From NCBI GenBank assembly GCA_963772365.1, contig CAVYXA010000003.1, forward strand, positions 256,001 to 320,000: a stretch of 64,000 nucleotides of DNA, given 5' to 3'. The translations under genes were made by a program, and so were the position numbers. The notes under the pieces were generated by a model that was given only the letters and a program-made list of their open reading frames with translations, had not been told where the DNA came from and did not search any database. Origin of the DNA: an uncultured Verrucomicrobiae bacterium (GTDB lineage: Bacteria > Verrucomicrobiota > Verrucomicrobiia > Chthoniobacterales > UBA10450). Shown here piece after piece: positions 8,013 through 61,349 of the stretch (the first letter of the stretch is position 1; the number at the start of each line of letters is the position of its first letter).

Positions 8013-10371
8013 CTAGGGCAGGTTCAGCTTGATTAGCGCAATGTCGCTGGAGTTAATGGCGCCGTTGGCATTCACATCCGAGCGGAAGGTCGATGCGTTA
8101 ACCCCTGTTGGAACTCGGGCCTTGGTTTGAGCAACGTCGCTCGAGTTAACATTCCCGTCCCCGGTCGTGTCGCCCACGATCTTGCGCATCGGAATCGTCA
8201 CGTCGACTGCCGGTGCATCGGCGGCCGAGTTCACTCCGTTGAGCTGCACGGTGATGGTCTGGTCATCGGCAATGTTGGTCAGCGGAATTGTTACAGTTGT
8301 TCCGTTCACATTGACGTTATTTCCACTCATGCACGCGCCGCCACTTCCCACACAACCCGTGCCCGATGTCACTTGGGCCTGGGGGTTGCCTGTCACCGTC
8401 ACATTGCCAGTGAAGGTGATCACCATTGTGTAATCGTCCGTGGCCCCTCCGGTTCGACATTCGATTCCCGGATTGCCGGTAAGCGGTAGATCGAGATCGA
8501 AAGTACCCGCCGCGCCGTGGATCTTTCGCGAGACGGCGCTTTGGAGCGTTGGTGTTCCAGTCACATCCAGGAACGCCGCACTGATCGGTCCCCAAGTCTG
8601 AAAACCCTGGAAGTCGCTCACGCCGCGTCCGCGTACCAAGATAACGTGGCGGCCTACCGACAGGCTGGCAGTGTTTATGGTTGCGTTGATGGCTACGGTT
8701 GGCGAATTGAACGTACCGTTCATCGGGATCGCGGTGCCACCAGCCCAGGGAGGCGTGTCAATGTAATATTCTGCCGCGCCGACATTCTGGCTGAACGCGT
8801 TGTTCGACCAGGCGAAGTTGATGCTGGCGGTTAGCTGTGATGGCACGCCTTGCGGCACTGATGCCGGGTTGGTGACAACGGTGTTGGCATCTGGTCCGTG
8901 CGAAGTCAGATAGGGCGTGCGCGCTATCTTCGCCAGGTAGAGGAGCATTCCGCGATTCTCAGGCCAAAGACCCTGCGACGAGCCGCAACCTGGATTATCT
9001 ATGCACGAGTAGGGGACGAGGAAGTCCTGGCCGCCCAATTCGGTGGAGTAGGCCGCCATGCCCAGCTCACCGTACGCCCAGTCAATCGAGCCTCCATCGA
9101 CCGTATACAACTCTTCGATGATCGAGCCATAGGGGTAACCGTTACCCCCCGCATTCCCGGCGGCCATGTGCGCGGCGATGTTGCGCGTCTCAGCGTAGTT
9201 AGGGATCTGCGTGCTAGTCCAGCCCCACGTAAAGAGATTGACTCGCGCATTTGTGTGGATGTTTTGGTAAACGCCTGTGGCAGTGATAGGCGCCGGGTCG
9301 GTGTCGCTAGGGCCGCGCTGATCGGGCACGAGGGTGCGGATCATGTTGACGATCGCCATGTCCTCCGGGTCCGATCCCGCCGACGTGCCTCGATAGGTCT
9401 GGTCGCACACATTGCCGCTCGAGCCGTTGCAGCAGCCCCAGTGGAAGGGGAAGTTGCGGTTGTTGTCTACGCCGAAGTGGTTAGATGCTGTGGGAGGCCA
9501 GGAGCACCCGCTGCCTCCGATGTTGTCACCGTTCTTGCGGAAGTAGTACGGGCTGTTGCCGCCGCCTCCCGCCTCGACGATGTGGTGGCCGTCCGGGTTA
9601 ACTTCGGGCATCAGCCAGATGTCGTGATAGTCCACGAGCCAGCGAACGTCCGCATTGGTATCGTAGTTATTGAGCAGGTAGTCGATTATGCGCATGACGA
9701 CTTCTGGCGTAGCGATCTCGCGGGCGTGTATATCGCCGTCCACCCACAAGACCGGTTTCGGGCCCGGTATGTTGCGGTTCGTGATGTGTAACACGAACAA
9801 GTCGTAGCCGTTCCAGGGACTGGGTAGCACACACGCGCCTGGATGCGATTTGCACCAGGAATCGCCGATATCGATCTTCTCGACCAGATTCGGGAACTGG
9901 GCCACCTTCTGGTCGAGGAAGGCGTATATTTCTTCCACCGTTTTGTACCCGCCGTAAAAAGTGAAGGGAAGGATTTGAGGGTAGCTGAGGTTGCGACTGC
10001 GGTTCTCATCTATCTCCACACGGAGGCCGCGAGCCGTCAGACCATAGTAGAGGTCGCGATCGCGGATTACGGTGAGATAGCCTCCGGTCGTGAGCGCTTC
10101 TTCGGGGTTGAGTTCTTCGGCCAGCTGGTCGCGCTCGGCGCGGTCGCGGAAGTAGATGCGCATTACCAGCGTGTCGTACCTTCTCGGCTATGGGATTCTT
10201 GCTGATTGAAGCGTCGGGACTCCCCGCAACAGGGACGGCGGCAAAGGCGTAGCCGCCCGGGTAGAGGGAAAAAGCAAGCAGTGACACGACGACGCCGATC
10301 GCGCAAAAGGTAAGACTGATAATGACGCGGGGAGTGAAGAAGCCAGATTTAGAGGCGGGCTCTTTTTTCAT
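8013..10371 (-). CDS. Secreted M14 zinc carboxypeptidase with C-terminal X-module + dockerin-like domain; +1 frameshift near 10179-10180 separates the leader
   Basis: HAREIA (HxxE), NPDG, DNNRNF, NIHT, GGSIDW, TELG. Removing one base joins ORF 10371 (signal peptide) to ORF 10163: KNPIAEK-YDTLVMRIYF. Confidence 0.85.
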
Positions 10372-10597
10372 GATAAATCTCTTGGTTATGTTTCCGCTGA
10401 AGTTGAAACACTATCGAAGCGCCACCAGCCTTGTTAGACCCCCTCGGCGATCAATCCTTCCAGCCTTAGGAAAGAACCAGCGTTATCAAAACCGAGGTGA
10501 CAATTGCAAGCGTTTTCGCCTATTAAATGCGGGACGCCGAGCCGCGTTCGGGAAGTTAGTGCACTCGTTAAGTCGGAATTTGTGTAAGACAAAAACC

Positions 10598-10671
10598 CGG
10601 AGCCTACGGGGCTCGAACCCGCAACCTCCGCCGTGACAGGGCGGCGCTCTAACCAATTGAGCTAAGGCTCC
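10598..10671 (-). tRNA. tRNA-Asp (GTC), CCA not encoded
   Basis: Reverse complement GGAGCCTTAGCTCAATTGGTTAGAGCGCCGCCCTGTCACGGCGGAGGTTGCGGGTTCGAGCCCCGTAGGCTCCG folds as a cloverleaf with anticodon GTC. Confidence 0.97.
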
Positions 10672-10823: not shown

Positions 10824-10853
10824 TATCAGCTTCTGCGTGATAACTTCGGGCGT

Positions 10854-11834
10854 ATGCCGACAAATCGCTCAAATCAGGATACCGCTGAATTCCAGCGGAT
10901 TTTGAAAATCCTTCATAAATGGGGAATTCAGACCCTCGGCCAACTTGCTGCGCTAGATAAGCAACAACTCGCCTCCCGTCTTGGATCGACAGCTGTCCAA
11001 ATGTGGGAGCGAGCCAATGGAAAATCGAGGCGTCAGCTTCGGCTAGTCCAGCCGCCGGAGTCATTCCAGGAGAGCTTCGAATTCGAGCATGAAATTGAAA
11101 CTGCCGAGCCGCTCCTGTTCATCCTGCGTCGTTTTCTAGAACAACTCGCTCGGCGGCTAAACGCCATTTATTTCGTCGCCGGTGAATTGAATCTGCGGAT
11201 TACATTCGCGACGAAACGAACTTACGAACGCGTCTTCAAAATCCCGCAACCCACCAATGACGTCGATCTTCTCTTTCGCATGCTCCAGACGCATCTGGAG
11301 AATTTCAAATCCGACCAGCCAATCGTAGCCGTTTCTCTCGAGGCCCAACGGTCCAAACCGACCAGACAACAATTTGGATTATTTGAAACCGCGCTTCGCA
11401 ATCCGCATCAGCTTTACGAAACACTGGCGCGGCTGACCGCGCTTCTCGGTTCAGATCGCCTGGGCACTCCGGTTCTGGAAGAAACCCATCGGCCGGATGC
11501 ATTTCGCATGGAGCATTTCGCGTGGGCTGTAGAGTCCGCTGTCCCCAGCGGAAAATCGCTCAATGCGCTGAGGACAGCGCACACTACACCGGCCCTGCGG
11601 CGATTTCGTCCCGCTGCGGCTGCATCCGTTTTTCAGTCGCAGGATCGACATCTCCAAAGCGAAAACATTTCCGGCAAAGTGATCGATCAAAGCGGGCCGT
11701 ATCTCCTTTCCGGAAATTGGTGGGACGAAAAATCGTGGGCCCGCGCCGAGTGGGACGCGGCGCTCGAGGATGGAACGCTATGCCGATCCTATCAAAATGA
11801 GAGCGGCTGGCATATCGAGGGGATTTATGACTGA
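10854..11834 (+). CDS. imuB: ImuB-like Y-family polymerase accessory protein, N-terminally shortened
   Basis: HhH thumb (LHKWGIQTLGQLAAL), little-finger region, clamp-binding QFGLF, C-terminal GPYLLSGNWWD...WHIEGIYD; immediately upstream of dnaE2. Confidence 0.8.
   Translation: MPTNRSNQDTAEFQRILKILHKWGIQTLGQLAALDKQQLASRLGSTAVQMWERANGKSRRQLRLVQPPESFQESFEFEHEIETAEPLLFILRRFLEQLARRLNAIYFVAGELNLRITFATKRTYERVFKIPQPTNDVDLLFRMLQTHLENFKSDQPIVAVSLEAQRSKPTRQQFGLFETALRNPHQLYETLARLTALLGSDRLGTPVLEETHRPDAFRMEHFAWAVESAVPSGKSLNALRTAHTTPALRRFRPAAAASVFQSQDRHLQSENISGKVIDQSGPYLLSGNWWDEKSWARAEWDAALEDGTLCRSYQNESGWHIEGIYD
11529..11587. repeat. GTAG-type REP doublet inside the imuB coding sequence
   Basis: GTAGAGTCCGCTGTCCCCAGCG ... 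CGCTGAGGACAGCGCACACTAC, inverted arms matching at 19/22 positions. Confidence 0.75.
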
Positions 11835-11843
11835 GAATGCAGA

Positions 11844-11934
11844 GTCATCCTGAGCGGAGTGCAGCGAAGTCGAAGGATCCCGCGAAGTTACCTTGAGGTT
11901 CATCACGGGATTCCTCGACTTCGCTCGGAATGAC
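11844..11934. repeat. Intergenic palindromic REP/MITE-like element (GTCATCCTGAGCG...CGCTCGGAATGAC type)
   Basis: Inverted ends GTCATCCTGAGCG / CGCTCGGAATGAC with internal CGAAGTCGAAGGATCCC / GGGATTCCTCGACTTCG arms. Confidence 0.8.
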
Positions 11935-11935
11935 C

Positions 11936-14900
11936 ATGCCCTACATCGAGCTTCACACCAAAAGCGCCTTCAGTTTTCTCCGCGGCGGTTCATTTCCCGA
12001 GCAACTTGCTGAAGTCGCAGCCGACTTGGAAATGCCTGCCATTGCGCTTTGCGATCGCGACGGAGTTTATGGTGCACAACGATTTTCCGTTGCTGCTCGT
12101 GAACACAATCTACGGCCGATCGTCGGCGCTGAATTGTCGATAGAAGACGGCATGATTTTGCCGGTGCTAGTCGAGAACCGAACCGGTTACAAAAATCTGT
12201 GCGAACTGCTCACCCAGGCGCATCTCCGCAGCGAAAAAGGAAAATGCGCAGTGAAATGGGATGAATTGTACCAATTCACGGAAGGTTTGGTCGCGCTCTT
12301 TGGATTGGGGTGCACTCCCCGGAATTCCGTCGAACGCGTGCAGTTTCTAATCAATGCTTTTGGGCGTGGCAATGTTTTCGTCGAAATCCAGCGGCATTTC
12401 ATTCGCGGCGAGGAACAGATCAATCGCGCGCTAGTCGATCTTGCTCGCGCATATCGATTGTCGATCCTTGCCACCAACGGCGTTCAATACGCCAAGCCCT
12501 ACGGGCGCGAAGTGCTGGACGTGTTCACGTGTATTCGCGAGCACACCCATCTCGATGCCGCCGGCAAGTTGCTCACCCAAAACGCCGAGCGCCATCTTAA
12601 GAGCGATCGCGAAATGCGAGCCATTTTCGCGGATTTCCCCGAAGCAATCGAGAACACGTCCCGCCTTGCTGACCGGCTCACATTTTCACTCGAAAACATC
12701 GGTTACGAGTTTCCCTCTTATCCGGTCCCGGCCGGCCACAACATGGATTCGTTTCTGCGGACGATCGTCTGGTTCGGTGCGCAACAGCGTTACGCCGCAG
12801 TCAGCACGTCGGTGAAACGGAAACTCGAAGAGGAACTCGCGCTGATCACGAAGCTCGGGTTTGCCGGATATTTCCTGATTGTCTGGGACATCATCAATTT
12901 CTGTCGTGAACACAACATCATGGTTCAGGGTCGGGGCAGTGCCGCGAACAGCGCGGTTTGTTATTGTCTCGGAATTACGCCGGTTGATCCGGTGAGCAAT
13001 CATTTGGTCTTTGAGCGTTTTCTAAACGAGAGCCGCAAAGGCTGGCCCGACATCGATCTCGATTTACCCAGCGGCGATCGACGCGAAGCGGTGATTCAGG
13101 AAATTTATCGGCGCTACGGCAAACATGGCGCGGCCATGACCGCAAACGTGATCAGTTATCGCGGACGAAGCGCCGCCCGCGAGATTGGCAAAGCGCTGAA
13201 TTTTTCGCCGAATATTCTCGATCGATTTTCGCACCTGTTCGCCAATGGCGATTTCCCGCACACGATGGAGTTGGAAGCGCAAATCGAGCAAGCCGGTTTA
13301 CCGAAAGATCATCCGCGAATGCCGGCGTTCGTCCGGTTGTATCACGCCATCTACGGTTTGCCGCGCCATCTCGGTCAGCATTCCGGCGGGATGATTATTT
13401 GCCAGGACAAACTCAGCTCATTCGTCCCGCTCGAGAATGCATCGATGCCCGGCCGGGTTGTCGCGCAATGGGACAAGGACGATTGCGAAGATCTCGGCAT
13501 CGTGAAAGTCGATCTGCTCGGGCTGGGGATGATGTCAGTGATGCAGGACGCGTTCGAGCTTTGCCGGGAACGGGGGCGACCTCTCGATCTAGCTCACATT
13601 CCAAAAAATGACGCCGCTACTTTCGAGATCATGCAAAACGCCGACACGATTGGCGTTTTTCAAATCGAGAGCCGCGCCCAGATGGCGACTTTGCCGCGAA
13701 TGAAACCGAAATGTTTTTACGATGTGGTGATCGAAGTTGCGATCATTCGACCCGGGCCGATCCAGGGCGACATGGTTCATCCATATCTGGCGCGGCGGGC
13801 TGGGAAGGAAAACGTCACCTATTTCGACGATCGATTGAAACCAGTGCTCGAACGCACGCTAGGGGTTCCGCTTTTTCAGGAGCAGATGCTCAAGATCGCA
13901 ATGGTGATGGCAGATTTTTCCGGGGACGAAGCAGAAGAATTACGACGCGCATTGAGTTTTCATCGCTCTGAAGAGCGAATGAACAAAGTTTGCGCGAAAT
14001 TGCGGACGGCGATGGAGCGCAAAAACATCGCGCCGGACAAGATCGACAAAATCATTCAATCAATTAGCTCTTTCGCTCTTTATGGATTTCCCGAATCGCA
14101 CGCAATCAGTTTCGCGATTTTGGCTTATGGCAGTGCGTATCTGAAAGTGCATCGGGCTCCGGAGTTTTACGCCAGCCTGCTCAATAATCAGCCGATGGGC
14201 TTCTATACCCCGGCCACGATTGTCAAAGACGCGCAGCGGCACGGAGTGAAAATCCGTCCGGTTTGCGTCCAGCAATCTGAATGGCGTTGCGCGATCGTCT
14301 CGAACAATCGGCCCTTACCTTCATCCTCTCTCTGGCCAGGGAGAGGCGGACCAGCCTCCGCCCGGCTACGACTCGGCAAGCGCGAAGCGCCGGTGAGGGT
14401 CAGTGAAGCTATCCGCTTGGGATTTTGCGTGGTGAGCGGATTGAATCAAAATCACGGGGAAGAGATCGTCCGTCAGCGGCAAGATCGACAATTCGATTCG
14501 CTGGAAGATTTCAAGCGGCGCGTCCCGCTTTCAAAAGATGAGCTGCGCAATTTGGCCGAGCTTGGTGCGCTCAATTGTTTCGCTAAACATCGCCGCGCCG
14601 CGATGTGGCGAGTGGAAGAAACGACGCGTGATGATCTGCTGGGGAGCGCACGCTTTCAGCGTGCTGGCGAATGCATTTTGCATTCGCGAACTTTCGAAAG
14701 TCCGTTTCGGCAGAATGCCGAAACCAGCACGCCAGAGGCGCGCGCTCCCCAGAATTCCGAGTCGCTGCTCAAGCGAATGACGATGCTCGAACGCGTAAAA
14801 GCCGATTACGAAACCATGAATCTCACGACCGGACCGCATCCGATGAAACTGCTGCGCACGCAATTACCGAACATTTGGCGGGCAATCGATCTGGCGCGAG

Positions 14901-15190
14901 CGAAACACGGATCGACAATTCAGATCGCGGGCAACGTGATTTGCCGCCAGCGTCCCGGGACAGCGAAAGGCTTTGTGTTCATCAGTCTTGAGGATGAGAC
15001 CGGCGTTTCCAACGCCATTGTCGATCCTGATTTATTTGAGCGATTTCGCCTTCTGATCACGGAAGAATCATTCCTTATCATCGAAGGGGAAGTGCAAAAC
15101 TCCGACGGTGTCGTGTTGATCAAAACCCGCCAGATCAAACCTCTCGCGCATGAAAGACTCATCGGAAGCGAGTCGCACGATTTTCGATAA
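11936..15190 (+). CDS. dnaE2: Error-prone DNA polymerase DnaE2 (ImuC)
   Basis: PHP domain YIELHTKSAFSFLRG, GRGSAANSAVCY, PDIDLD, PRHLGQHSGG, RQRPGTAKG, C-terminal SHDFR motif. Confidence 0.96.
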   Translation: MPYIELHTKSAFSFLRGGSFPEQLAEVAADLEMPAIALCDRDGVYGAQRFSVAAREHNLRPIVGAELSIEDGMILPVLVENRTGYKNLCELLTQAHLRSEKGKCAVKWDELYQFTEGLVALFGLGCTPRNSVERVQFLINAFGRGNVFVEIQRHFIRGEEQINRALVDLARAYRLSILATNGVQYAKPYGREVLDVFTCIREHTHLDAAGKLLTQNAERHLKSDREMRAIFADFPEAIENTSRLADRLTFSLENIGYEFPSYPVPAGHNMDSFLRTIVWFGAQQRYAAVSTSVKRKLEEELALITKLGFAGYFLIVWDIINFCREHNIMVQGRGSAANSAVCYCLGITPVDPVSNHLVFERFLNESRKGWPDIDLDLPSGDRREAVIQEIYRRYGKHGAAMTANVISYRGRSAAREIGKALNFSPNILDRFSHLFANGDFPHTMELEAQIEQAGLPKDHPRMPAFVRLYHAIYGLPRHLGQHSGGMIICQDKLSSFVPLENASMPGRVVAQWDKDDCEDLGIVKVDLLGLGMMSVMQDAFELCRERGRPLDLAHIPKNDAATFEIMQNADTIGVFQIESRAQMATLPRMKPKCFYDVVIEVAIIRPGPIQGDMVHPYLARRAGKENVTYFDDRLKPVLERTLGVPLFQEQMLKIAMVMADFSGDEAEELRRALSFHRSEERMNKVCAKLRTAMERKNIAPDKIDKIIQSISSFALYGFPESHAISFAILAYGSAYLKVHRAPEFYASLLNNQPMGFYTPATIVKDAQRHGVKIRPVCVQQSEWRCAIVSNNRPLPSSSLWPGRGGPASARLRLGKREAPVRVSEAIRLGFCVVSGLNQNHGEEIVRQRQDRQFDSLEDFKRRVPLSKDELRNLAELGALNCFAKHRRAAMWRVEETTRDDLLGSARFQRAGECILHSRTFESPFRQNAETSTPEARAPQNSESLLKRMTMLERVKADYETMNLTTGPHPMKLLRTQLPNIWRAIDLARAKHGSTIQIAGNVICRQRPGTAKGFVFISLEDETGVSNAIVDPDLFERFRLLITEESFLIIEGEVQNSDGVVLIKTRQIKPLAHERLIGSESHDFR
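14310..14401. repeat. Composite palindromic element inside dnaE2
   Basis: Ends GGCCCTTACC / GGTGAGGGTC, inner hairpin CCTCTCTCTGGCCAGGGAGAGG, nested GCCTCCGCCCGGCTACGACTCGGCAAGC segment; translates to a non-polymerase-like insert. Confidence 0.7.
14639..14752. repeat. 114-nt multi-hairpin palindromic element inserted in frame in dnaE2
   Basis: Terminal IR CTGGGGAGCGCACGC / GCGCGCGCTCCCCAG, inner IR GCGTGCTGG / CCAGCACGC, two internal hairpins. Confidence 0.85.
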
Positions 15191-15244
15191 CCCCAGTAAA
15201 ACCGTTGCAATCTTAAACCGGCGCGGAAATATCTTGGTATCCGC

Positions 15245-21498: not shown

Positions 21499-22050
21499 CT
21501 AGAAAAGGCTTTGAGGGACCTCGACTTTATCGCCGGGCTGAAGAGCAACATCTTTTGACGGATCGCGACGAAATTTCCGCACATCGTAAATATGAGCTTT
21601 GCTACCTCGCAGGAGGCGAACATGTTTTTGGTCGGCGAAGTCATTGAAGCCACCTGCGGCATTGATGGCGGTGAGCAGGGTCATGTCTTCCGTAAACGGA
21701 ACGCGCATCGGATTACGGACTGCGCCGCCGATATTCACGAAGCGCGCCCCCGGCTGCATGAGGATCGTGATCGTGGGGTGTGTATAGATCTTATTTCCGC
21801 GATATGCTTCCTGGATCTCCGCAGAAAGCTGGGCCGGAGTTCGCCCTGCGGCTTTGACTTTATTGATGTAAGGCAGATTGATTGAACCGCTAGCATCGAC
21901 AATATAAATGTTATTGATCTGCGATTGCTCGTTCGCCGGGACGCCACTGATGGTGACGTTAATCGGGTCGCCCACTCGAAGCAGGGCTTGGGCAGACGCA
22001 GCCGATGCCAATCCAAAGAGAAGTAGTGCTGTGGCGGTAAGAATTCTCAT
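21499..22050 (-). CDS. Polysaccharide export protein (Poly_export + SLBB; Wza-like)
   Basis: Signal peptide, VDASGSINLPYI, GAVRNP, AINAAGG, LQPGDKVEVP. Confidence 0.88.
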   Translation of the reverse strand: MRILTATALLLFGLASAASAQALLRVGDPINVTISGVPANEQSQINNIYIVDASGSINLPYINKVKAAGRTPAQLSAEIQEAYRGNKIYTHPTITILMQPGARFVNIGGAVRNPMRVPFTEDMTLLTAINAAGGFNDFADQKHVRLLRGSKAHIYDVRKFRRDPSKDVALQPGDKVEVPQSLF

Positions 22051-24203: not shown

Positions 24204-24278
24204 AAGGGAACCCTTGGAAAAGGGAGAGATACTAGCAAAAGAGACGCCAAAAGTAAAATCCCAAAGCAGGGCCGCCTC

Positions 24279-25865: not shown

Positions 25866-25940
25866 AAATCCGAGGCAACAGTTTTCGTCGAGTCTCGATC
25901 CAAGCCGGCATCACCACTTCCGAAGATCGATGCAGTCTAA

Positions 25941-26063
25941 TTATTGTTGATTCTCGTCCCGCACTTCCGGCGGCGCCCTGAGCAAGCGCGCATAGGCCCA
26001 GATGACTGCGCCCCACACGAGAGCGAGTGAACACGACATGAAGAGCCAGCCCCAGCCATTCAT
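25941..26063 (-). CDS. 40-aa single-TM protein, MetS-like small subunit of the NSS transporter (absent from the ORF track)
   Basis: MNGWGWLFMSCSLALVWGAVIWAYARLLRAPPEVRDENQQ*; ATG overlaps the transporter stop (ATGA). Confidence 0.75.
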   Translation of the reverse strand: MNGWGWLFMSCSLALVWGAVIWAYARLLRAPPEVRDENQQ

Positions 26064-27688: not shown

Positions 27689-27900
27689 TGGCGTCCTCTT
27701 TAGCGGGATGAGTGAAGCTTGGCAACCAGATTCATGCCAAAAGCCTGCCCGGTGGTAATCAGAGCGCAGTTTGGCCCAGTCAGTGCTTCAAAGCATCCAT
27801 CAACCCTGTTGAGTCGATGGTCCCGACAGCTGACTCCCGCACTGCGGTATCGCCAAGTTATTCCGTGGCGCGGGCGCCGGCCATCTCCCAATTGGGTGAC

Positions 27901-31088: not shown

Positions 31089-31114
31089 CTAACAATCAGT
31101 AATCCACATTTAAA

Positions 31115-35233: not shown

Positions 35234-35242
35234 GACGACGAT

Positions 35243-49926: not shown

Positions 49927-52728
49927 ATGCATACGACTTTCAATCGGTGCACGTCAGTCGCAGTTGGCCTATGTTTCGGCGCTTTCGGCCTAACGATCTT
50001 CGGGCTTGCTGCAAGTTCGCCAAGGGGAGGGAACCTGAAACTCCGCACCGCCCCTGCGACTAGCTCGTCGGGGCAACTCCAGCGCGGTATTTATCGGGGC
50101 ATGCCGGTGTCGTACTTTATCCAAAACGGCAAAGCGATTTTCCAAGGCGATATTCTGCTGGAAAAAATCGAGCCGATTCTTACCGAAACGAAGCAATCGC
50201 CCGAACCGACCTCATTCGGCATTGCTTATGGCCAATATCTTTGGCCGAGAGTTGGAAACCAGTATCAGATTCCTTATGTGATTGTGGCGGGAAGTGGAAA
50301 TGAGAGCAATCTCAACGCCGCCATCGCGCAGTTTAACAGCACGTTCACTGATCTTCAGTTCGTGCCGCGCACGACCGAGCCGGATTACGTCGCAATTTAT
50401 TTCGACCCTAACGATAACAGCGGACAATGCGAATCATCCATCGGACGCGTAGGCGGCCAGCAGCAAATGGGTGGTGCTGGCGGTTCATTTCAACCCTGCA
50501 CCGTCGCGACCGTTTTGCACGAGATGGGGCATGTTGTCGGTCTCTGGCACGAGCAATCCCGCCCGGATCGCGACACGTTTGAAACGATTCATTATGAAAA
50601 CATCATCAAAGCTTCGCGCTCCAACTTCGATCCGATTTACGATAACCAGCAGCGGAGCACGCTGTTCGATTACGCGTCGATCATGCATTACCCGCCGTTT
50701 TCCTTTTCCCGCAATGGCGGGCCCGCGATTGAATCAATTCCGGCCAGCATTCCCTTGTCGAACCAGATCGGATACAGCGCCGCCGACATCGATGGCATTA
50801 AGCGACTTTATCGACTCGCGCCAACGGCCATAACGGTCACAAGCAACCCGCCCGGTCTGCAAGTCATTGTCGATGGTACCACCATCACCACGCCGCAGGT
50901 CTTCAATTGGGCGCTCAATTCGACGCACACGCTCGACGTTCCACCAGTCGTGCAAAGCCAGCCCGGCAACATCGTCGGCACGAATCAGCCGACGACCTTC
51001 TATTATTTCTATGGACGCTGGAACGATGCTGCTGCCGCGTCGCACAGCATCACAATTACTCCGGGAAACGGTGATCCTGCCACTCCTGCCACATCTCCTG
51101 CAGTAACGATCTACTCAGCCAGTTTCATCCAGCTTGTGCCCTATTCCGTCAGTATCTCGCCAGTGGACGCGGGAACGGTCACTCCTTCACCGGCGCCGCA
51201 AAACTATCCTGGCTCTGCACTTCTCTTTTACACGGCGCGTCAGCAAGTCACTCTGACCGCCACTCCAAATGCGGGACAAAGCTTCTATGAGTTTATCAAC
51301 GCGCCGTTCTGGTTGCCCGGCGGGTTGGGCGCGAACCCGAAAACGTTTTACGTGCCGGACACTGGTCTCACTGTTGATACAACGGCCTATTTCTCTCCGA
51401 ATCCTGTTTACACGATCACAGTCGCACCCAATGCCTTTAGCTCGAATCTCTGGGTTTATGCCGATGGTAATTTTTGGTATGCGCCCAAAAACTTTTCCGC
51501 CTTTTACGATTCAGGCTGGACCCCCGGCAGTATGCACACTCTCGCTGTCGATGATCCGGAATATCCGTACAGCTTCGCGACCCGGTTTGCTTTCAACCAG
51601 TGGAACGATGGCACACCCACGGCGACGAGAAGTGTGATACTTCCGGCGAGTGCCATCACCTATACGGCCAACCTCACGCCGCAATTCTATGTGACCGATT
51701 ACGTCAACCAATCATGCGCCGGCTCTATCACCGTGACGCCGCCTTCTCCCACCGGCGACGGTTTTTATCCTAACGGGCAGCTCCTCACCTTTATGGAAAT
51801 GCCAAACTCCGGCTGGACGTTCAGCGGCTGGCAATATGATTTGAGCGGCACCTCCAGCTCGCAACCGCTCACCGTGTCCGACGAAGTTCTCGTTGCTGCC
51901 GATTACAATACGATTGCGACGCCACTGACGCTGACAAATCTCAATCCATCCAGAGCGGTCGCTGGTGGAGGAAATTTCATGCTTACGCTCAATGGCACCG
52001 GATTCACTGTTAACTCTGTTGTTTCCGTTAACGGAACTTTTCCTCCCGTGACATTTATCAACTCCACGCAACTGACTGTGCCGGTCAGCGCAGCCCAGAT
52101 CGCAACGCCCGGAGCTTTCCAGGTCTGGGTCGAAAATTTCCCCAACGGTGCTCCGTGTGCCGCCTTCGTTGCGCTGCCGTTTACAGTTGCGAATCCGCCA
52201 GCACCACCCACGCCGACATCTGTTGTCTCGCGCAAGACGCATGGGGCCGCCGGCACATTCGATGTCGATCTTCCTTTGACGGGAACGCCAGGACTCGAAT
52301 GCCGCACTGGTGGATCGACAAGCGATTACCAGATCGTCGCCACTTTTCCGGTCCCCGTCACAATTGATGGAAACCCGCAGGCGCAGGTCACTTCCGGGAC
52401 GGCCACGATCGGCAGCGGCGGAGTTGCCAATGGCGGCGTCGTTTCCATCACCGGGAACACGGTCACAATTCCCCTAACTAGTGTTGCCAACGCGCAAGCA
52501 CTCAGCATCCGTCTAAATGGTGTGGACGGCGCGGGGAACATCACGATTCCAATGAATCTGTTAATCGGCGACACCAACGGCAATGGAGCGGTCAGCAGTT
52601 CCGATGTGGCTCAGACCAAAGCCCGAATCGGTCAGGCAATCGGTATGACGAACTTTCGTTCGGACGTAAATGCCAGCGGTGGCATCAACTCGACCGATGT
52701 CACAATCATCAAGCAACACCTGCCCTAG
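49927..52728 (+). CDS. Secreted M12A (astacin) metalloprotease with beta-repeat and IPT/TIG-like domains and C-terminal X-module + dockerin-like domain
   Basis: FQGDI pro-motif, HEMGHVVGLWHEQSRPDRD, SIMHY Met-turn, LTLNGTGF...INSTQLTV. Confidence 0.92.
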   Translation: MHTTFNRCTSVAVGLCFGAFGLTIFGLAASSPRGGNLKLRTAPATSSSGQLQRGIYRGMPVSYFIQNGKAIFQGDILLEKIEPILTETKQSPEPTSFGIAYGQYLWPRVGNQYQIPYVIVAGSGNESNLNAAIAQFNSTFTDLQFVPRTTEPDYVAIYFDPNDNSGQCESSIGRVGGQQQMGGAGGSFQPCTVATVLHEMGHVVGLWHEQSRPDRDTFETIHYENIIKASRSNFDPIYDNQQRSTLFDYASIMHYPPFSFSRNGGPAIESIPASIPLSNQIGYSAADIDGIKRLYRLAPTAITVTSNPPGLQVIVDGTTITTPQVFNWALNSTHTLDVPPVVQSQPGNIVGTNQPTTFYYFYGRWNDAAAASHSITITPGNGDPATPATSPAVTIYSASFIQLVPYSVSISPVDAGTVTPSPAPQNYPGSALLFYTARQQVTLTATPNAGQSFYEFINAPFWLPGGLGANPKTFYVPDTGLTVDTTAYFSPNPVYTITVAPNAFSSNLWVYADGNFWYAPKNFSAFYDSGWTPGSMHTLAVDDPEYPYSFATRFAFNQWNDGTPTATRSVILPASAITYTANLTPQFYVTDYVNQSCAGSITVTPPSPTGDGFYPNGQLLTFMEMPNSGWTFSGWQYDLSGTSSSQPLTVSDEVLVAADYNTIATPLTLTNLNPSRAVAGGGNFMLTLNGTGFTVNSVVSVNGTFPPVTFINSTQLTVPVSAAQIATPGAFQVWVENFPNGAPCAAFVALPFTVANPPAPPTPTSVVSRKTHGAAGTFDVDLPLTGTPGLECRTGGSTSDYQIVATFPVPVTIDGNPQAQVTSGTATIGSGGVANGGVVSITGNTVTIPLTSVANAQALSIRLNGVDGAGNITIPMNLLIGDTNGNGAVSSSDVAQTKARIGQAIGMTNFRSDVNASGGINSTDVTIIKQHLP

Positions 52729-52742: not shown

Positions 52743-54140
52743 ATGTTCTTCGTCGACTTTAGAGCTCCTATCAGATCGGCGACGCGATTTTTCTGTCCCA
52801 GCGTTGCCGCGCTGTTCGTAACAGCCGCGTCTGCATTTGCAGTCATTCTTTACGGAACGGGCGATCCCGGCGCCAACACAAGCGCTCCCACAGGCGATCT
52901 AGCCGGCAGCGGGTGGCAGTATGAAGGACAGTTCGGCAATTTTCTTGGAACAGTCATTGCCTCAAACTATTTTGTTACGGCGAAACACATCGGCGGCAAT
53001 GTCGGCAACGCTTTCACTTTTAATCAGATTAATTATATTACCACCGCCGCGTTTCCCGATCCATCGAGCGATCTCCAAGTTTGGCGAATAGCCGGAAGCA
53101 TTCCCGTTCACGCTCCGTTGTACAGCAATGTTGGTGGAAGTGAGTCGGGTCTTGAGCTGGTCGTTTTCGGACGCGGGACTCAGCGCGGGGATGCTGTTTT
53201 AGTGGGTAACGACATGCACTTGGGAGGTTGGGGGTGGGGAGTTTCAGACACGGTCCAGCGTTGGGGCACAAATCAAGTAGGTGCAGTCGTGAATGATCCA
53301 GACTACGGCCAGTTGCTGTATGCACCTTTCGATGCTGGTGTCGGACGCAACGAATCGCATCTTTCCGTAGGCGACTCGGGCGGTGCCGTCTTCGTATTCA
53401 ATCCGACGAGCAGCCTATGGGAACTTGCCGGAATCAATTTATCCGTGGATGGCCCGTTCAGCAGATCTCCCACGGGAGCGAATTCGTTTAATGCCGCGCT
53501 CTTCGACACCAACGATCTTTTTGTGCAAGCCGAAGGCGGGAGTTGGATTCCCGCCCCAAACCCGAGCGGATTTTATGCGACAGAGGTTGCTGCTCACAAA
53601 GGTTTTGTCGAATCGGTGATAATGCAATTGCTAAGCACCGTGTCGCGCAAAGTCCATGGCAGCGCTGGAACGTTCGATGTCGACCTGCCTCAAAGTGGTC
53701 GGCCTGGCGTCGAGTGCCGGGGTGCTGCTTCGGCGAACGATTATACGATCGTGTTCGTTTTCATGAATAACGTTTCTGTTCAATCGGCCAGCGTGACGAC
53801 GGGCATCGGCAGCGTAAGTAGTTTTAGTGTTGTCGGAAATCGGGTCACTGTAAATCTTACCGGCGTAACAAGCGCGCAAAGGGTCGTGGTAACACTCGCA
53901 AACGTAAGCGACGGAACAAACACAAGTGACGTTCAAGCCACCATGGATGTGCTCATCGGCGATACGAACGGAGACGGAAACGTGAATGCGTCCGATCTCG
54001 CGCAAACCAAATCGCGAATCGGACAATCACTCGACGCTATGAACTTCCGTTCGGACGTAAATGCCAATGGCGTCGTCAATGCCACAGATGCGGCCATCAT
54101 TGAATCAAATATCGGCACAGGGCCTCGCTCAACCCGATAG
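52743..54140 (+). CDS. Secreted trypsin-like (S1) serine protease with C-terminal X-module + dockerin-like domain
   Basis: Catalytic triad motifs TAKH, SDL, GDSGG. Confidence 0.85.
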   Translation: MFFVDFRAPIRSATRFFCPSVAALFVTAASAFAVILYGTGDPGANTSAPTGDLAGSGWQYEGQFGNFLGTVIASNYFVTAKHIGGNVGNAFTFNQINYITTAAFPDPSSDLQVWRIAGSIPVHAPLYSNVGGSESGLELVVFGRGTQRGDAVLVGNDMHLGGWGWGVSDTVQRWGTNQVGAVVNDPDYGQLLYAPFDAGVGRNESHLSVGDSGGAVFVFNPTSSLWELAGINLSVDGPFSRSPTGANSFNAALFDTNDLFVQAEGGSWIPAPNPSGFYATEVAAHKGFVESVIMQLLSTVSRKVHGSAGTFDVDLPQSGRPGVECRGAASANDYTIVFVFMNNVSVQSASVTTGIGSVSSFSVVGNRVTVNLTGVTSAQRVVVTLANVSDGTNTSDVQATMDVLIGDTNGDGNVNASDLAQTKSRIGQSLDAMNFRSDVNANGVVNATDAAIIESNIGTGPRSTR

Positions 54141-55462: not shown

Positions 55463-58400
55463 ATGGCGAACGAAACTTCATCGACTGAATCTTCGCTCTC
55501 ACTGCACGACGTGCTGGAAGCGGAATTCGTTTCTTTGCATGGCGACCTGCCGCCTGACTATCCGAGCGCCTCGAATCCAGAAAAGCGATTGGAAGCTCTT
55601 TGTACCGCGGTTCACGCGCTGAAAGAAAAGCACGCCGAGCGAACGGCGCTCTGCATATCAGGCGGCGGCATTCGCAGCGCCACGTTCGGCCTCGGCGTTT
55701 TGCAGGGGCTGGCGCGCTGCGGACTGCTCGATAAATTTCATTATCTTTCCACGGTTTCCGGAGGCGGATATATCGGCAGTTGGTTGAGCGCGTGGATCAA
55801 GCACCACACCGGTGGGATTAGCGGAGTGGCAGCGGAACTGAAACGCCGGCCCGAGTCGATCTTTGAACCGGAGCCGCCGCCTATCCGGCATCTTCGACAA
55901 TTCAGCAATTATCTATCGCCACGAGCGAGCCTGACCTCGATGGATTTCTGGACATTGGTCGCCACGTTCATTCGAAACATGTTCTTAAATTGGCTGGTGC
56001 TGATATCGCTGCTGGCTGCGGTGATGATGATCCCGAGACTTTATCTCGCCGCGATGCTGGTGTCGCCTGATTGGAGCGCCGCCACCGATCAGGCGACCCT
56101 CGTTCAAATCATCGACTGGTGGAATTTGCCGCTCAACACAATGCTGGCAGTGGGACTTGTCCTCGTCGCTATCTCGATGGCGTATGCGATTGTTGATGTT
56201 CCTTCCACCGGCAATATGCGTTTGCCGCAGCGCCGGTTTCTGATCTTCCGTCAGCTCCCATTAATATTGGCGGCTCTGATCCTGGCTGAATGGTGGGCGG
56301 TATTTCGCACCGTTCACGGCAGCGATTTGTTTCTGGCAAGGGACTGGCTACCGAGATTTATTGTCTTCTTTCTAGCCTGCTATTTGGCTGGTGGCGTTCT
56401 CGCGCTAGTGGTTCTTTCGTTTCGTCAACGCGAGAAGAAACCGTTGGTTCGTCGCTTGATCAATTCTGTCTGGCGGCTCGGGATGATCGTGATCGCGGCG
56501 GCTATTGCCGGTATTTGCCTGTGGGCAATCGCGATCGGGATGTTCCTGGCCAGTCCGATTCCATTCACATTGAATCGCCCTTGTGAGGCAACGCAGATTC
56601 CGTGGAACAAACAAAAGTTGGTGCTCCCGCAAGGAACCTCCGGGCTCATTACTCGAATTGATCCCAGCTACATCATCCAAGCCGGTGAACAGCGAGGCCG
56701 CATCAGCGCGACCGACCTGGGGCCTTTGCATCTGAAGCCGGGCCAAACGCTTCCGGTTCAAGTCAAACTGAAAAAGGATTTCGAAGCGGTGCCCGAACCC
56801 TGGCGCAAAGAAAGAATGAAACTTGCCGCCGGCACTCAAATTCTCGTTAGGGAACTGGATCGAAAAGTTACAATCGAAACGGCACAAGGGCGCGGTTGGA
56901 TCGGCGAAGATCAAATCGGCGCGTTAGACCTGCCACCGAATCGAAAACTTTCCGACCAGTTCCCCACGCCTGCCCCAGCAAATAATGCTTTGGCCTACGT
57001 CTGTCTTGCCCCGGCGTTGCTGCTGGCCGTGCTGCTGTTGGTTAATTTTTTATTTACCGGACTCGCCAGTTGGGTGACGCAGGATGAGGATCGAGAATGG
57101 TGGGGGCGATCGGCCGCTTGGATTCTCGTGACCGTGTTTGCCTGGATCGTTCTGAACACGATTGTTCTCTGGGGTGCACAGGCGATTTCCGCGACGCCAA
57201 ATCAGCTCGATGTTTTCTTCGGTGAAATCAAAGCGACGCAGCAGGCAAAGGGTCTCCTGGGAGCTTTTGGCGGAGTAACGGGGCTTGCCAGTGCGCTGCT
57301 GGCTTTTCGATCGAAGCTAAGCCGGTGGCTGGGGGAGAAAGCGGCCTTTCATTGGCTTCTAATTATCGTAGCGGCTCTTTTTCTCGTGCTCCTCTCAATC
57401 ATCATTTCATGGCTCCTTGTTCTGCTGGGAGCTCAGGCTTGGGCACAACGCACGACCAATTGGATTCTAGGCAAGCAAGCGGAACTGTTCGATCCTAATT
57501 CCTGGCAGGTTCAACTCTTCGTTATCGTATTTCTCACGGGCGCGATGCTGGTGGTCGGGATCGCGATGGGTTTCTTTATCAATGCCAACAAGTTTTCCCT
57601 TCATGCTACATATCGAAACCGATTAATCCGCGCCTACCTTGCAGCTTCCCGCGACCAACGAAGCCCCAACCCGTTTACCGGTTTCGATCGAGAAGACAAT
57701 TTCCCGCTGTGCGAGCTGCGGCCGGAAAAGCCGCTGCATATCATCAACGGCGCCCTGAATTTGGTAAAAGGCGAACAACTAGCCTGGCAGGAGCGAAAGG
57801 CCGAATCGTTTACAATGAGCCGGCTACACTGCGGCTCATGGCACATTGGCTATCGGTCATCGAGCAAATACGGTGACGAGATTTCGTTGGGCACAGCTAT
57901 GGCAATCTCCGGAGCCGCCGCCAATCCCAACATGGGTTATCACTCCTCGCCAGTGGTCGGTTTTTTGATGACCCTGCTAAACCTGCGCCTCGGTTGGTGG
58001 CTTGGTAATCCAGGCCCGGCGGGCAGAAAAACCTGGACCTACAAAGGTCCCGGCTATTCTGTCGGGCCGCTGTTTTCCGAATCCATTGGCGACACAACCG
58101 ATCACTACAAGTACGTGAATCTTTCTGATGGCGGCCACTTCGATAATCTCGGGCTTTACGAGATGGTCTTGCGCCGCTGCCATTTCATTGTGGTGAGCGA
58201 CGCCGGGGAGGATCTGGAATGTTCGTTTGTCGATCTTGGTGAAGTCGTCCGCAAGATTCGGATCGACCTTGGTATCCCGATTGAGTTTGGCGAACCGCGG
58301 ATGACCATTTACCCGCGGAGCGCTCAGGACATCCCAAATCCCCCCGGAGGCCACAACTGCGCCATCGGCCGCATTCGTTATTCCGCGATGGACGGCGACA

Positions 58401-58693
58401 ACGCGCCAGACGGCGTGATTATTTACGTCAAACCTGCTTGTTATGGGGACGAACCACGCGACATCTACGAATACTTCAAAACAAATCCAACTTTTCCCCA
58501 CGAAACCACCGCCGACCAATTTTTCTCTGAGTCGCAGTTCGAAAGCTATCGGATGCTCGGCGCCTACACGATGGGGAAGCTGTGTGCCGAGTGCGGCGGC
58601 GATTTCGGTGTTTTCATTCGTTCTATTCTCAAACAGCACCTGAACATCGAACCGCCGCAATGGCTCGCACCATTAATTCAGGAAGCCTCCTGA
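55463..58693 (+). CDS. Patatin/cPLA2-like phospholipase with a large polytopic membrane insert
   Basis: SGGGIRSA oxyanion motif, STVSGG nucleophile, DGGHFDNLG; many TM segments between the catalytic halves. Confidence 0.88.
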   Translation: MANETSSTESSLSLHDVLEAEFVSLHGDLPPDYPSASNPEKRLEALCTAVHALKEKHAERTALCISGGGIRSATFGLGVLQGLARCGLLDKFHYLSTVSGGGYIGSWLSAWIKHHTGGISGVAAELKRRPESIFEPEPPPIRHLRQFSNYLSPRASLTSMDFWTLVATFIRNMFLNWLVLISLLAAVMMIPRLYLAAMLVSPDWSAATDQATLVQIIDWWNLPLNTMLAVGLVLVAISMAYAIVDVPSTGNMRLPQRRFLIFRQLPLILAALILAEWWAVFRTVHGSDLFLARDWLPRFIVFFLACYLAGGVLALVVLSFRQREKKPLVRRLINSVWRLGMIVIAAAIAGICLWAIAIGMFLASPIPFTLNRPCEATQIPWNKQKLVLPQGTSGLITRIDPSYIIQAGEQRGRISATDLGPLHLKPGQTLPVQVKLKKDFEAVPEPWRKERMKLAAGTQILVRELDRKVTIETAQGRGWIGEDQIGALDLPPNRKLSDQFPTPAPANNALAYVCLAPALLLAVLLLVNFLFTGLASWVTQDEDREWWGRSAAWILVTVFAWIVLNTIVLWGAQAISATPNQLDVFFGEIKATQQAKGLLGAFGGVTGLASALLAFRSKLSRWLGEKAAFHWLLIIVAALFLVLLSIIISWLLVLLGAQAWAQRTTNWILGKQAELFDPNSWQVQLFVIVFLTGAMLVVGIAMGFFINANKFSLHATYRNRLIRAYLAASRDQRSPNPFTGFDREDNFPLCELRPEKPLHIINGALNLVKGEQLAWQERKAESFTMSRLHCGSWHIGYRSSSKYGDEISLGTAMAISGAAANPNMGYHSSPVVGFLMTLLNLRLGWWLGNPGPAGRKTWTYKGPGYSVGPLFSESIGDTTDHYKYVNLSDGGHFDNLGLYEMVLRRCHFIVVSDAGEDLECSFVDLGEVVRKIRIDLGIPIEFGEPRMTIYPRSAQDIPNPPGGHNCAIGRIRYSAMDGDNAPDGVIIYVKPACYGDEPRDIYEYFKTNPTFPHETTADQFFSESQFESYRMLGAYTMGKLCAECGGDFGVFIRSILKQHLNIEPPQWLAPLIQEAS

Positions 58694-58736
58694 GATCGGT
58701 TCAAAATTCCTTGCCAGAGCGTTCGCTGGCGCACTT

Positions 58737-58901
58737 ATGAATCGCGGTGAGGTGAAGTTGTTGCCAACAGTCACACCCGATTTTTGCCGTCTCGCACGAA
58801 TCGGAACGTGGCTTGCTTTGTGCGCGCTGCTCGCAATCGCCGGGTGCAAAAGATCCCAGATTGTCGATGAAGCGTATTTCGGATCTGCCGCCAATTTGTG
58901 A
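58737..58901 (+). CDS. Small putative lipoprotein (54 aa; absent from the ORF track)
   Basis: MNRGEVKLLPTVTPDFCRLARIGTWLALCALLAIAG-CKRSQIVDEAYFGSAANL*; hydrophobic stretch ending in the lipobox IAG|C. Confidence 0.45.
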   Translation: MNRGEVKLLPTVTPDFCRLARIGTWLALCALLAIAGCKRSQIVDEAYFGSAANL

Positions 58902-59120
58902 CGGTTCGCGGCGGAGGATATTTCTTCCTGCCAAGTTTGCGCGCGCTGCGTTACTTCGCCCGGTCTTAAGGGTGCCTTTCGTGAAGCGTCGATTGTCCCA
59001 CCGACAACGCCTGCCGAGTGTCGTGCTGAAATTTACAAACAAAAAGCGTGACATTGGCAAATCCGCTTTTGTAATCTCGACGTCACGGAATCCGTTCCGG
59101 ATCCCTCAACCATCTTATTT

Positions 59121-61349
59121 ATGAAAAGAAAATCCGCCAAGCGATCAGCATTCTTTAATGTTCGGGCCCTGTTGGGCATTCTGTTGTGCGTTGCCGGCCT
59201 AACCATTGGCCTTGTGGCGTTCAATAAACTCTCGGCGCAATCGCCACGATCCTGGAATCCGCAAGTGACCAGTCAGGCGCAGTACCGCGGCGTGTTGCGG
59301 ATTGTAAAATTCGACGTTTCACCTCCCTTGCGCAACATCGCACCGATTCCTCCGCACGCGGGTAGTTTGCGGGACAACGAAGAGCGCGATGTAATTCCGC
59401 GCGGTCTCAGCAGCCTGTTTCAACACGACCCAGTTGTTCAGGCGATTAAAGGGAGAATCTCGATTCCTGCTCCGATTATCAGCTTTAATGGTCCGACTAA
59501 CCTCTCAGGCGTTTATCCTCCGGACCCGAATGGAGCCGTTGGTCCCAATCATGTTGTGGTCATGTCGAACTTGTATTTCCAAGTGTTCAACAAGAGCGGC
59601 GGCTCGGTCTATGGTCCCGCCGCGAACAACACGCTCTGGGCCGGCTTTGGCGGCGCTTGTCAGACGCAAAATTCGGGCGATCCGGTTGTTGTTTACGATC
59701 AATTAGCTGATCGCTGGTTGCTTACCCAATTTACCGGCTCGCCTCCGTACTTGGAATGTGTAGCACTTTCCCAGACGTCCGACCCAGCGGGTGCGTATTA
59801 TCGCTGGGCGATCTCGACAGGAAATAATTTCCCTGATTACCCTAAAGCGGCTATGTGGCCAGATGCGTATTACTTTAGTACGCGCGAATTTCTGAATGGA
59901 GGCGCTTTTGTCGGTATAGGCGCGTACGCTCTGAACCGGGCGCAGGCTCTGGCGGGCGATCCCAACGCCCAGGTAATCTCGTTTTTGGCTCCTCCGACAC
60001 CGGCTTATAATGTCGGTGATGGCTTGCTGCCGGCCGACCTCGATGGTTTTACACTACCGCCGTCTGGCAGCCCCGAATTTTATATCGGCTCGATGGACAA
60101 TAATGGCGGATATGGCGCGCCTCAGGATGCGCTGACTGTCTGGAAGTTTGTGGCGGACTTCGCGAATGCGCCGATGTCCAGTTTTACTCTGACAAACACA
60201 ATTCCGACAGCGCCGTTCAATTCGATCCTGGCTCTCTGCGGAGCGGGCCGCAATTGCATCCCACAGCCAAACACCACCGTTCGGCTCGACCACCAGGGTT
60301 ATCGGCAACGACCGCTGTTTCGCGCCGCTTACCGAAACTTCGGCGGCCACGAATCCATCGTAACCAATCAATCCGTCTCGGCGGGTACTGGTCCCAATGG
60401 AGAAGTATCGGGTATTCGATGGTGGGAACTACGCAGTCCAAATAGTAGCCCGACTATTTTTCAGGAGGGAACGTATGCGCCCGGGCTGACGGATGGGATT
60501 CATCGGTGGTTTGGGAGCGTGGCAATGAATGCAGCCGGAGATATGGCACTCGGTTATAGCGCTTCAAACAACACAAATCCGGCGGTGTTTCCGAGCGTGT
60601 ATTACACAGGGCGCCTTGCCAGCGATCCACTCGGACAAATGACACTGGGCGAGGGAGTCATTGTTAATGGAACGGGTTCGCAGACAGGGACGGCCAGCCG
60701 CTGGGGAGATTACACGTCCATGGTTGTCGATCCTGTTGATGATAGTACTTTTTGGTACATCAATGAGTGGGTTCCCACGACCAGTGCTGTGGGATGGGTA
60801 ACACGCGTTGGCGCATTTCAATTTGCACCGAGCGTACTCAGCGCAGTATCGCGCAAAACGCATACGGGAGTAGGAGACTTCGACATTGCGCTGCCGCTTA
60901 CCGGCACACCGGGAATCGAATGCCGCACTGGCGGAGCGACGAACGACTACACGATGGTCGTGACCTTTTCCGGTAACGTGAGTATCACGGGCAGTCCGCA
61001 GGCGGAAGTCACAGTGGGCGCCGGCTGCGTGGGGAGTGGCGGCGCGTGCAATGGTGGAATGGTAACCGTTAGCGGGGCGGTAGTAACCATCCCACTGACC
61101 AACGTTGCCGATGATCAGACAATCAACGTGCGGCTCAACGGAGTGAACGGAGGCGCCAATGTAACCATCCCAATGTCGAGGATCGCGGGCGACACGAATG
61201 GCAATGGAGCTGTCACGAGCTCGGATGTTGCTCAAACAAAGGGACGCATTGGGCAACCGGTGGATACGACCAATTTCCGTTCGGACGTGAACGCCAGCGG
61301 CGGGATCAATTCGACTGACGTCACCGTCGTTAAACAGAATCTGCCTTAA
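59121..61349 (+). CDS. Secreted protein of unknown activity with C-terminal X-module + dockerin-like domain
   Basis: Leader; PPDPNGAVGPNH, GDPVVVYDQLADRW, DYPK, RWGDY motifs; shared C-terminal module. Confidence 0.85.
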   Translation: MKRKSAKRSAFFNVRALLGILLCVAGLTIGLVAFNKLSAQSPRSWNPQVTSQAQYRGVLRIVKFDVSPPLRNIAPIPPHAGSLRDNEERDVIPRGLSSLFQHDPVVQAIKGRISIPAPIISFNGPTNLSGVYPPDPNGAVGPNHVVVMSNLYFQVFNKSGGSVYGPAANNTLWAGFGGACQTQNSGDPVVVYDQLADRWLLTQFTGSPPYLECVALSQTSDPAGAYYRWAISTGNNFPDYPKAAMWPDAYYFSTREFLNGGAFVGIGAYALNRAQALAGDPNAQVISFLAPPTPAYNVGDGLLPADLDGFTLPPSGSPEFYIGSMDNNGGYGAPQDALTVWKFVADFANAPMSSFTLTNTIPTAPFNSILALCGAGRNCIPQPNTTVRLDHQGYRQRPLFRAAYRNFGGHESIVTNQSVSAGTGPNGEVSGIRWWELRSPNSSPTIFQEGTYAPGLTDGIHRWFGSVAMNAAGDMALGYSASNNTNPAVFPSVYYTGRLASDPLGQMTLGEGVIVNGTGSQTGTASRWGDYTSMVVDPVDDSTFWYINEWVPTTSAVGWVTRVGAFQFAPSVLSAVSRKTHTGVGDFDIALPLTGTPGIECRTGGATNDYTMVVTFSGNVSITGSPQAEVTVGAGCVGSGGACNGGMVTVSGAVVTIPLTNVADDQTINVRLNGVNGGANVTIPMSRIAGDTNGNGAVTSSDVAQTKGRIGQPVDTTNFRSDVNASGGINSTDVTVVKQNLP

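Follow-up and report, generated by a model that had tools for sequence, protein, structure and literature searches.

In a 64,000-nucleotide stretch from an uncultured Verrucomicrobiae bacterium (the window; assembly GCA_963772365.1, contig CAVYXA010000003.1, positions 256,001 to 320,000), we found that five secreted proteins end in the same unit of ~170 amino acids (aa), an immunoglobulin (Ig)-like X domain followed by a two-loop dockerin, which we call the tail. The tail is probably a Ca-dependent plug for a predicted cohesin, the domain called Y, that is carried by exosortase-sorted PEP-CTERM proteins; these sockets would hold varied cargo at the cell envelope. An earlier, sequence-only reading of the window had proposed that the unit is a modular tag that assembles or anchors peptidases and other hydrolases at the surface for scavenging. 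Our data support the idea of a modular tag by which a dockerin anchors secreted proteins, with Y as its candidate partner, whereas the search for a protein with two Y domains, which found none, and the share of peptidases (6 of 39 cargoes) lend little weight to multi-enzyme peptide scavenging.

A shared X-dockerin tail

The five proteins and their common C-terminus had been picked out by the sequence-only reading, and we found its open reading frames (ORFs) and tail starts to be exact. The tail begins at residue 542 of the first protein (8013 to 8540, minus strand, with the dockerin at about 8028-8174) and, in four plus-strand genes, at residues 554 (49411 to 49917), 765 (52219 to 52728), 298 (53634 to 54140) and 574 (60840 to 61349, with X at about 60840-61184 and the dockerin at about 61185-61343). 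Pairwise tail identity is 50-72%, the N-terminal parts of the five are unrelated, and all five match PF00404 (Dockerin_1) at 30.9-42.2 bits against a curated cut-off of 22.9.

The tail is spread over the host genome (a 3.35-Mb assembly, 90% complete) and is not peculiar to the window. A tail profile matched 46 ORFs, 34 of them with a whole tail that is always C-terminal, and six-frame merging gave 44 clusters. Because three of these are lone second-loop fragments, we count ~41 tail loci, in agreement with 41 PF00404 matches. The wider count that the sequence-only reading had suggested places the tail in 103 of 151 genomes of the family. It is rare elsewhere, with 9 of 301 genomes in a sample of the phylum and 6 of 151 in the order of genome G449, three of them weak; there are 36 copies in one betaproteobacterial metagenome-assembled genome (MAG) and 26 in a Planctomycetales MAG that has Pfam cohesins instead of Y.

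The paired loops that had been read as a dockerin signature bear this out: D1 and D12 are present in both Ca loops of all 34 whole tails, with a loop spacing of 30-31. In each of the two loops K17 is present in 33 of 34 whole tails, and in both repeats position 10 is S or A and position 11 mostly S or T. A comparable symmetry between the repeats is seen in type I dockerins that can bind in two modes. The best PDB sequence matches of the dockerin are also type I (top, Xyn10B 2ccl_B, E 1e-8), and weaker profile matches reach into the X module of clostridial X-dockerin (XDoc) dyads (2b59_B, 4wi0_B). When X was compared with X60 modules, the matches were weak (4wi0_B, E 0.0036 over profile positions 52-176; 5k39_B, E 0.02). 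NCBIfam names neither the tail nor the Y domain, and no match to a planctomycete 'GC-type dockerin' model was obtained.

We modelled the copy at 60840-61349 (mean predicted local distance difference test score, pLDDT, 85.5, low near the second loop) and obtained an all-beta domain at residues 1-122 and a two-helix dockerin. Residues 1-122, the X domain, are predicted to form an Ig-like sandwich (best Z 8.9, root-mean-square deviation (rmsd) 2.5 Å over 89 residues). Its structural matches are generic Ig/CopC-like sandwiches with Z of 8.9 or less, and Foldseek with X gave no match at E 0.001. We considered X itself as a cohesin, by which cargo would chain to cargo; this was unsupported, with no cohesin among the structural matches listed. 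The invariant residues of X are S-R-K-x-H, F-D and E-C-R.

A candidate socket with a predicted cohesin fold

The route to Y came from betaproteobacterial loci in which a tail gene is followed by the gene of a sorting-signal protein. When we screened the 31 PEP-CTERM-like ORFs of the host genome (G000), three turned out to contain a domain of ~160 aa, Y, that is also present in one tagged protein. One Y+PEP-CTERM gene is intact (G000 C3:96338-96955, minus strand) and two are frameshifted (C3:103474-104089, minus; C5:204484-205106, plus), while the tagged protein is an adaptor made of Y, a Pro/Thr linker and an X-dockerin tail, also frameshifted (C1:1574766-1575868, minus). All of these candidate partner genes lie outside the window. 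The Y+PEP-CTERM protein is ~205 aa long with one Y, and the C-terminus of the Y protein passes TIGR02595 (PEP-CTERM) at 26.5 bits against a cut-off of 16. The host genome also has four matches to the exosortase family PF09721, and three whole and one partial secretin matches.

The model of Y (pLDDT 95) points to a cohesin fold. The top Foldseek rows are cohesins (E 3e-7), and in VIA-align, which is independent of Foldseek, the first 16 rows are all cohesins; the best has Z 12.8 and rmsd 2.3 Å over 127 aligned residues, and the first non-cohesin fold comes at Z 9.7. We therefore describe Y as a predicted cohesin. Sequence searches gave Y no Pfam or NCBIfam match and no PDB match, solved cohesins included. 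In the ESM Atlas, matches of Y fell under 0.9 and serve as leads, and the top rows of the betaproteobacterial domain, at 0.90-0.91, are unnamed clusters. Complex predictions of the tail (A1) with Y (A3) and two Ca scored 0.29, 0.48 and 0.22, a median below the mark of 0.32, and count neither for nor against binding.

No partner had been recognised when the window was read on its own. Pfam cohesins are absent from the host genome as well, and the candidate partner, Y, lies outside the window. A Pfam cohesin as partner was rejected, with none in the host genome and one above cut-off among the 151 family genomes that could not be aligned to Y. This single Pfam-visible cohesin (G321, L053:1384-2004) carries VPDSG-CTERM and sits beside an insertion sequence; it may represent another socket built on this plan without being related to Y.

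Across the 151 family genomes, Y was found in 33, then 51, then 53 as the query was widened. All 53 Y-positive genomes are also tail-positive, and Y is found in 0 of 48 tail-free genomes. Its frequency rises with tail number (where a per-genome count of 23 means at least 23): 2 of 21 genomes with 1-2 tails, 13 of 32 with 3-9, 13 of 24 with 10-19 and 25 of 26 with 20 or more. The Y alignment had 21 rows, 2 of them first found beside tails.

Y and the tail are also linked as genes. A tail lies within ±1.5 kb of Y in 15 of 30 best-Y loci (one per genome; four cut by contig ends were kept) and in 1 of 27 other PEP-CTERM loci. These controls were 30 loci from five tail-rich genomes, of which 3 were Y genes and were dropped; they were centred on the sorting signal, which gives ~600 nt less reach upstream, and still showed a tail at all three Y genes. 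In 14 of the 15 linked pairs the tail is upstream of Y, on the same strand and 99-486 nt away. The tail-then-Y cassette is repeated two to four times in four genomes (G402, G370, G048, G383). In two genomes outside the Y training rows, Y follows a tail directly: G324, and G344, where 17 tails occupy one 60-kb stretch and Y comes after one of them. A genome of another family of the same order (G174, 99% complete), likewise outside these rows, has a single tail and then an adjacent single Y with a different C-terminus, and in G423 a frameshifted Y beside a tail was missed by the genome-wide search.

The arrangement recurs, again in cases that did not enter the Y profile, in a Burkholderiales record (G450) and in G495, from the order of G449: each has one tail and, after it, a Y homologue that ends in an IPTL-CTERM-type tail. 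Compared one sequence at a time, Y and the betaproteobacterial domains gave no significant match (E 0.02-0.4), and significance was reached with wider profiles only; the profile-profile comparison gave E 8e-6 and a probability of 84%. The N-terminal domain of the Burkholderiales tagged protein (L048:4245-5546) resembles a cohesin by eye and matches neither PF00963 nor Y.

Among the best 150 of 367 library matches to Y, 89 are Y+PEP-CTERM proteins, 5 are Y with a tail, 13 are other and 43 are fragments; the first class was set by a strict pattern, and several of the 13 have degenerate sorting tails. Ten of 11 longer Y relatives examined are ~370-aa Y+tail adaptors, a twelfth match (P0181) runs tail then Y, and one protein (L106) reads tail-Y-cargo-tail. 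No protein with two Y domains was found in the host genome, the best 150 of 367 matches or the 11 longer relatives, and the one match among those 150 with two Y stretches is two fused PEP-CTERM genes. PF00963 and the Y profiles likewise found no multi-cohesin scaffoldin in the host genome, which is 90% complete, and a third cohesin family is conceivable. The search for cohesins or repeated scaffolds that had been proposed for this genome thus yields a single-cohesin candidate and no repeated scaffold. Since two-Y proteins were not found and Y+tail adaptors were, the system resembles a board of one-site sockets with adaptors and not a scaffoldin. Four genes carry Y with a C-terminal domain other than PEP-CTERM (L108:3584-5068, L113:2559-3368, L121:4600-5430, L232:1330-2325), and this socket may thus also be mounted on anchors or export signals of other kinds.

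Mechanism, alternatives and related systems

In the mechanism that we favour, Sec would export both the cargo and the Y socket, and exosortase would cut off the PEP-CTERM tail and attach the socket to the envelope, with the cell surface as the likely site. The X-dockerin of a cargo would then clip onto Y, likely in a Ca-dependent manner. Each socket would hold one cargo, and therefore the ~40 cargoes would share a common board of one-site sockets, which the Y+X-dockerin adaptors would extend or re-route. A likely role for X, as in clostridial XDoc dyads, is to stabilise the dockerin and to act as a spacer for the cargo.

Several points weigh against this mechanism. A cohesin fold alone does not show a dockerin-binding function, and PF00963 matches none of the 21 Y sequences. 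In the host genome the distances between the Y+PEP-CTERM genes and the closest tail are 8.5, 72 and 80 kb, and two of the three, together with the adaptor, are frameshifted in the assembly. Y is undetectable in 50 of 103 tail-positive genomes, 11 of which have 10-19 tails; G433 is tail-positive and Y-negative, G024 has one tail and no Y, and the flanks of tails in G303, G317 and G354 hold no Y. The p values for co-occurrence (Fisher, 4e-12) and linkage (Fisher, 8e-5) are overstated because kin are not independent. Finally, the end point of PEP-CTERM proteins past the inner membrane is unresolved in the accessible part of one account, with some periplasmic (PMC12188702).

The genomes with tails and no detectable Y also speak for an explanation that we consider rather unlikely, in which the X-dockerin of most cargoes acts as a secretion signal or has as its partner another outer-membrane protein, a polysaccharide or itself, with Y being of use to its neighbour gene only. 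The host genome's 41 tails against three anchor genes fit this explanation, as do the invariant X residues, which need a reason of their own. However, Y is absent from tail-free genomes, wider profiles kept adding Y beside tails in formerly negative genomes, and dockerin positions 10, 11 and 17 are uniform across cargoes, as one common partner would predict. It is also unlikely that the pair binds in the periplasm, with the cohesin keeping cargo at the inner membrane or ferrying it across the outer membrane as an export adaptor, which would leave cargo periplasmic or released. Such a pair would draw on the open route and end point of PEP-CTERM proteins (excerpts of PMC12188702 and PMC1569441) and on the secretins as alternative exits, but many cargoes are propellers or peptidases of 700-1,300 aa, with frames of up to 4,571 aa in G449, which would be typical of the outer surface, and most PEP-CTERM evidence, as far as the accessible part of PMC12188702 goes, favours the surface or exopolysaccharide (EPS).

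The peptidases among the cargo (M14, astacin, three S8 and a trypsin-like enzyme) would suit an undetected multi-cohesin scaffold of cellulosome or planctosome kind that gathers endo- and exopeptidases for peptide scavenging. Adaptors exist, one of them with two tails around Y, the genome is incomplete, and divergent cohesins evade profiles, according to the portion of PMC11557425 available. Against this stand the lack of a two-Y protein in any of the sets searched and the minority share of peptidases, and we regard such a scaffold as very improbable. Taken together, these data favour the tail as a plug for Y sockets on PEP-CTERM proteins.

The closest architectural parallels are single-cohesin anchors. 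ScaE of Ruminococcus flavefaciens likewise combines a single cohesin with a C-terminal sorting signal, and ScaC is a monovalent cohesin+dockerin adaptor; Y matches their cohesins at Z 8.6 (2zf9) and Z 11.4 (5lxv). The ScaE cohesin binds XDoc. In contrast to both, the host here is a diderm, with PEP-CTERM and exosortase in place of LPXTG and sortase. For R. flavefaciens, sortase anchoring and the ScaC adaptor are described in the part of PMC11557425 that was available; unlike in that system, we found no multi-cohesin scaffoldin here and no glycoside-hydrolase family in 39 cargoes. OlpA and OlpC of Clostridium (Acetivibrio) thermocellum are one-cohesin surface anchors too (Y against 3ul4, Z 11.7, and 4dh2, Z 11.5), and these use SLH domains. 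The Y anchors work like the ScaE and OlpA type and are not members of it, since their C-terminus is PEP-CTERM and not LPXTG or SLH. The tail recalls the XDoc dyad of CipA and ScaA, where an Ig-like X directly precedes the dockerin, as its profile matches indicate; in contrast, X-dockerin here is on every cargo and not on a scaffoldin, and X is at most a putative homologue of X60.

Non-cellulolytic cohesin-dockerin systems have been proposed in two other diderms, the 'planctosome' of Nemodlikiaceae and a complex of Ca. Stygibacter, with M14, M12 or S8 cargo; in the accessible parts of these papers, the carrier of the Pfam-visible cohesins is a lamin-tail anchor of 2,210 aa or a multi-cohesin scaffoldin of 3,755 aa (PMC6461901, PMC8542988). 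Here the cohesin protein is a one-cohesin PEP-CTERM protein of ~205 aa, and peptidases are a minority. The signal peptide, PEP motif, membrane helix and basic tail, together with the exosortases, agree with the PEP-CTERM/exosortase system as far as extracts of PMC1569441 and PMC12188702 present it. In the accessible part of the 2006 PEP-CTERM paper (PMC1569441) neither cohesin nor dockerin is mentioned, whereas the sorted protein of the present system would act as a receptor on which other secreted proteins dock.

The system is not a cellulosome: we found no multi-cohesin scaffold, and no glycoside hydrolase among the 39 cargoes. Within the literature covered, which takes in few subscription journals, we found no description of a dockerin or cohesin linked to PEP-CTERM/exosortase or to this lineage, and in that scope the system is a new variant of single-cohesin anchoring, with exosortase in a diderm. 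If true, this would assign a role to one class of PEP-CTERM proteins, that of receiving other secreted proteins, and would account for the many 'orphan' dockerins in genomes of Chthoniobacterales, as well as for the way in which peptidases, a phosphoesterase, copper oxidases and propellers stay at the cell. The question of dockerins without cohesins becomes testable with two small domains, which may also prove useful for display in Gram-negative hosts as a new cohesin-dockerin pair, orthogonal to others. More tentatively, and on balance doubtfully, this could be a general diderm sorting pathway, in which Pfam-invisible exosortase-anchored cohesins receive a lineage-wide X-dockerin tag and adaptors, joined head to tail, form Ca-dependent tethers that determine the distance between cargo and cell. 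The tag-plus-socket cassette would then have passed between Verrucomicrobiota and Burkholderiales, perhaps also Planctomycetota, with independent expansions to dozens of cargoes.

Cargo and neighbouring genes

The N-terminal labels that the sequence-only reading gave to the five window proteins stood in part. The first gene (8013 to 10371, minus strand) encodes an M14 zinc carboxypeptidase with a leader (PF00246, E 4e-52). Its true start is at 10371, and a frameshift near 10180-10193 in this assembly parts its leader (10180-10371) from the rest of the gene. The alignments of three of four relatives run on across both frames; in sequencing runs at most 0.12 of the sequence words matched, and relatives' contigs gave no bridge over the frameshift. 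Comparable splits in five of the tail loci and in three of the four Y genes of the host genome suggest assembly indels.

The next three genes are tandem and co-oriented, as had been noted, with gaps of 9 and 14 bp. They encode a BNR/Asp-box beta-propeller (47980 to 49917, plus; PF02012), an astacin (M12A) metallopeptidase (49927 to 52728, plus; PF01400, E 1.5e-28) and a probable trypsin-like serine peptidase (52743 to 54140, plus). The longest propeller ORF opens at 47752, and the hydrophobic leader makes 47980 the likely start; its proposed likeness to sialidases is weak (E 1e-5). The astacin also holds InlB-B-like repeats (PF18998) and a choice-of-anchor Z repeat (NF058597, above cut-off). 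The trypsin-like label comes from sequence motifs only (His, Asp and GDSGG), and the N-terminal part of that protein has no Pfam or PDB match. The fifth protein (59121 to 61349, plus) is secreted and had been called unknown, rightly, as outside the tail it has no Pfam family above cut-off and no PDB match.

A leader motif (a basic stretch, S-A/G-F-F-N/T-x-R and a hydrophobic run) opens six ORFs in a pattern search, with sites at 59121-59220 and 10270-10371 of the window and at C1:552670, C3:496146 and C5:244979 of the host genome. Three of the six have a tail in frame and two lie just upstream of a tail; the conserved motif could be a second, N-terminal sorting signal.

Across the host genome we scanned 39 tagged ORFs, most whole ones having hydrophobic leaders by eye. 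Beta-propellers account for 14 (8 BNR, some called below cut-off, 3 Kelch and 3 other) and peptidases for 6 (five by Pfam and the trypsin-like one by motif); there are also one phosphoesterase, two copper proteins, one LamG/Ig and one PATR protein, and 14 have no N-terminal Pfam family. At C3:188543-196365 (L015) a tandem of three BNR paralogues and a Kelch gene has two identical tails, a sign of recent duplication or conversion. Immediately behind a tagged gene, a PemK/MazF-like ORF continues into a dockerin fragment (L020:4532-4984; C4:65531-65986) and may mark an insertion. Tandem arrays of 8-17 tagged genes, mostly of 1,000-1,300 aa, are found in G344 (C30:1083-61779), G317 (C2:3147336-3177912) and G423 (C4:145062-176425).

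Elsewhere in the window, an EPS-like locus (22050-35884) has chain-length/kinase protein, flippase-like and glycosyltransferase-like genes by eye and an outer-membrane barrel, PF10082, confirmed by Pfam. The literature links exosortase systems with EPS. Two tandem genes at 10854-15190 we take by eye to be ImuB-like and error-prone DnaE2-like, and a 1,076-aa membrane protein with a patatin-like motif (55463-58693) lies between tagged genes.

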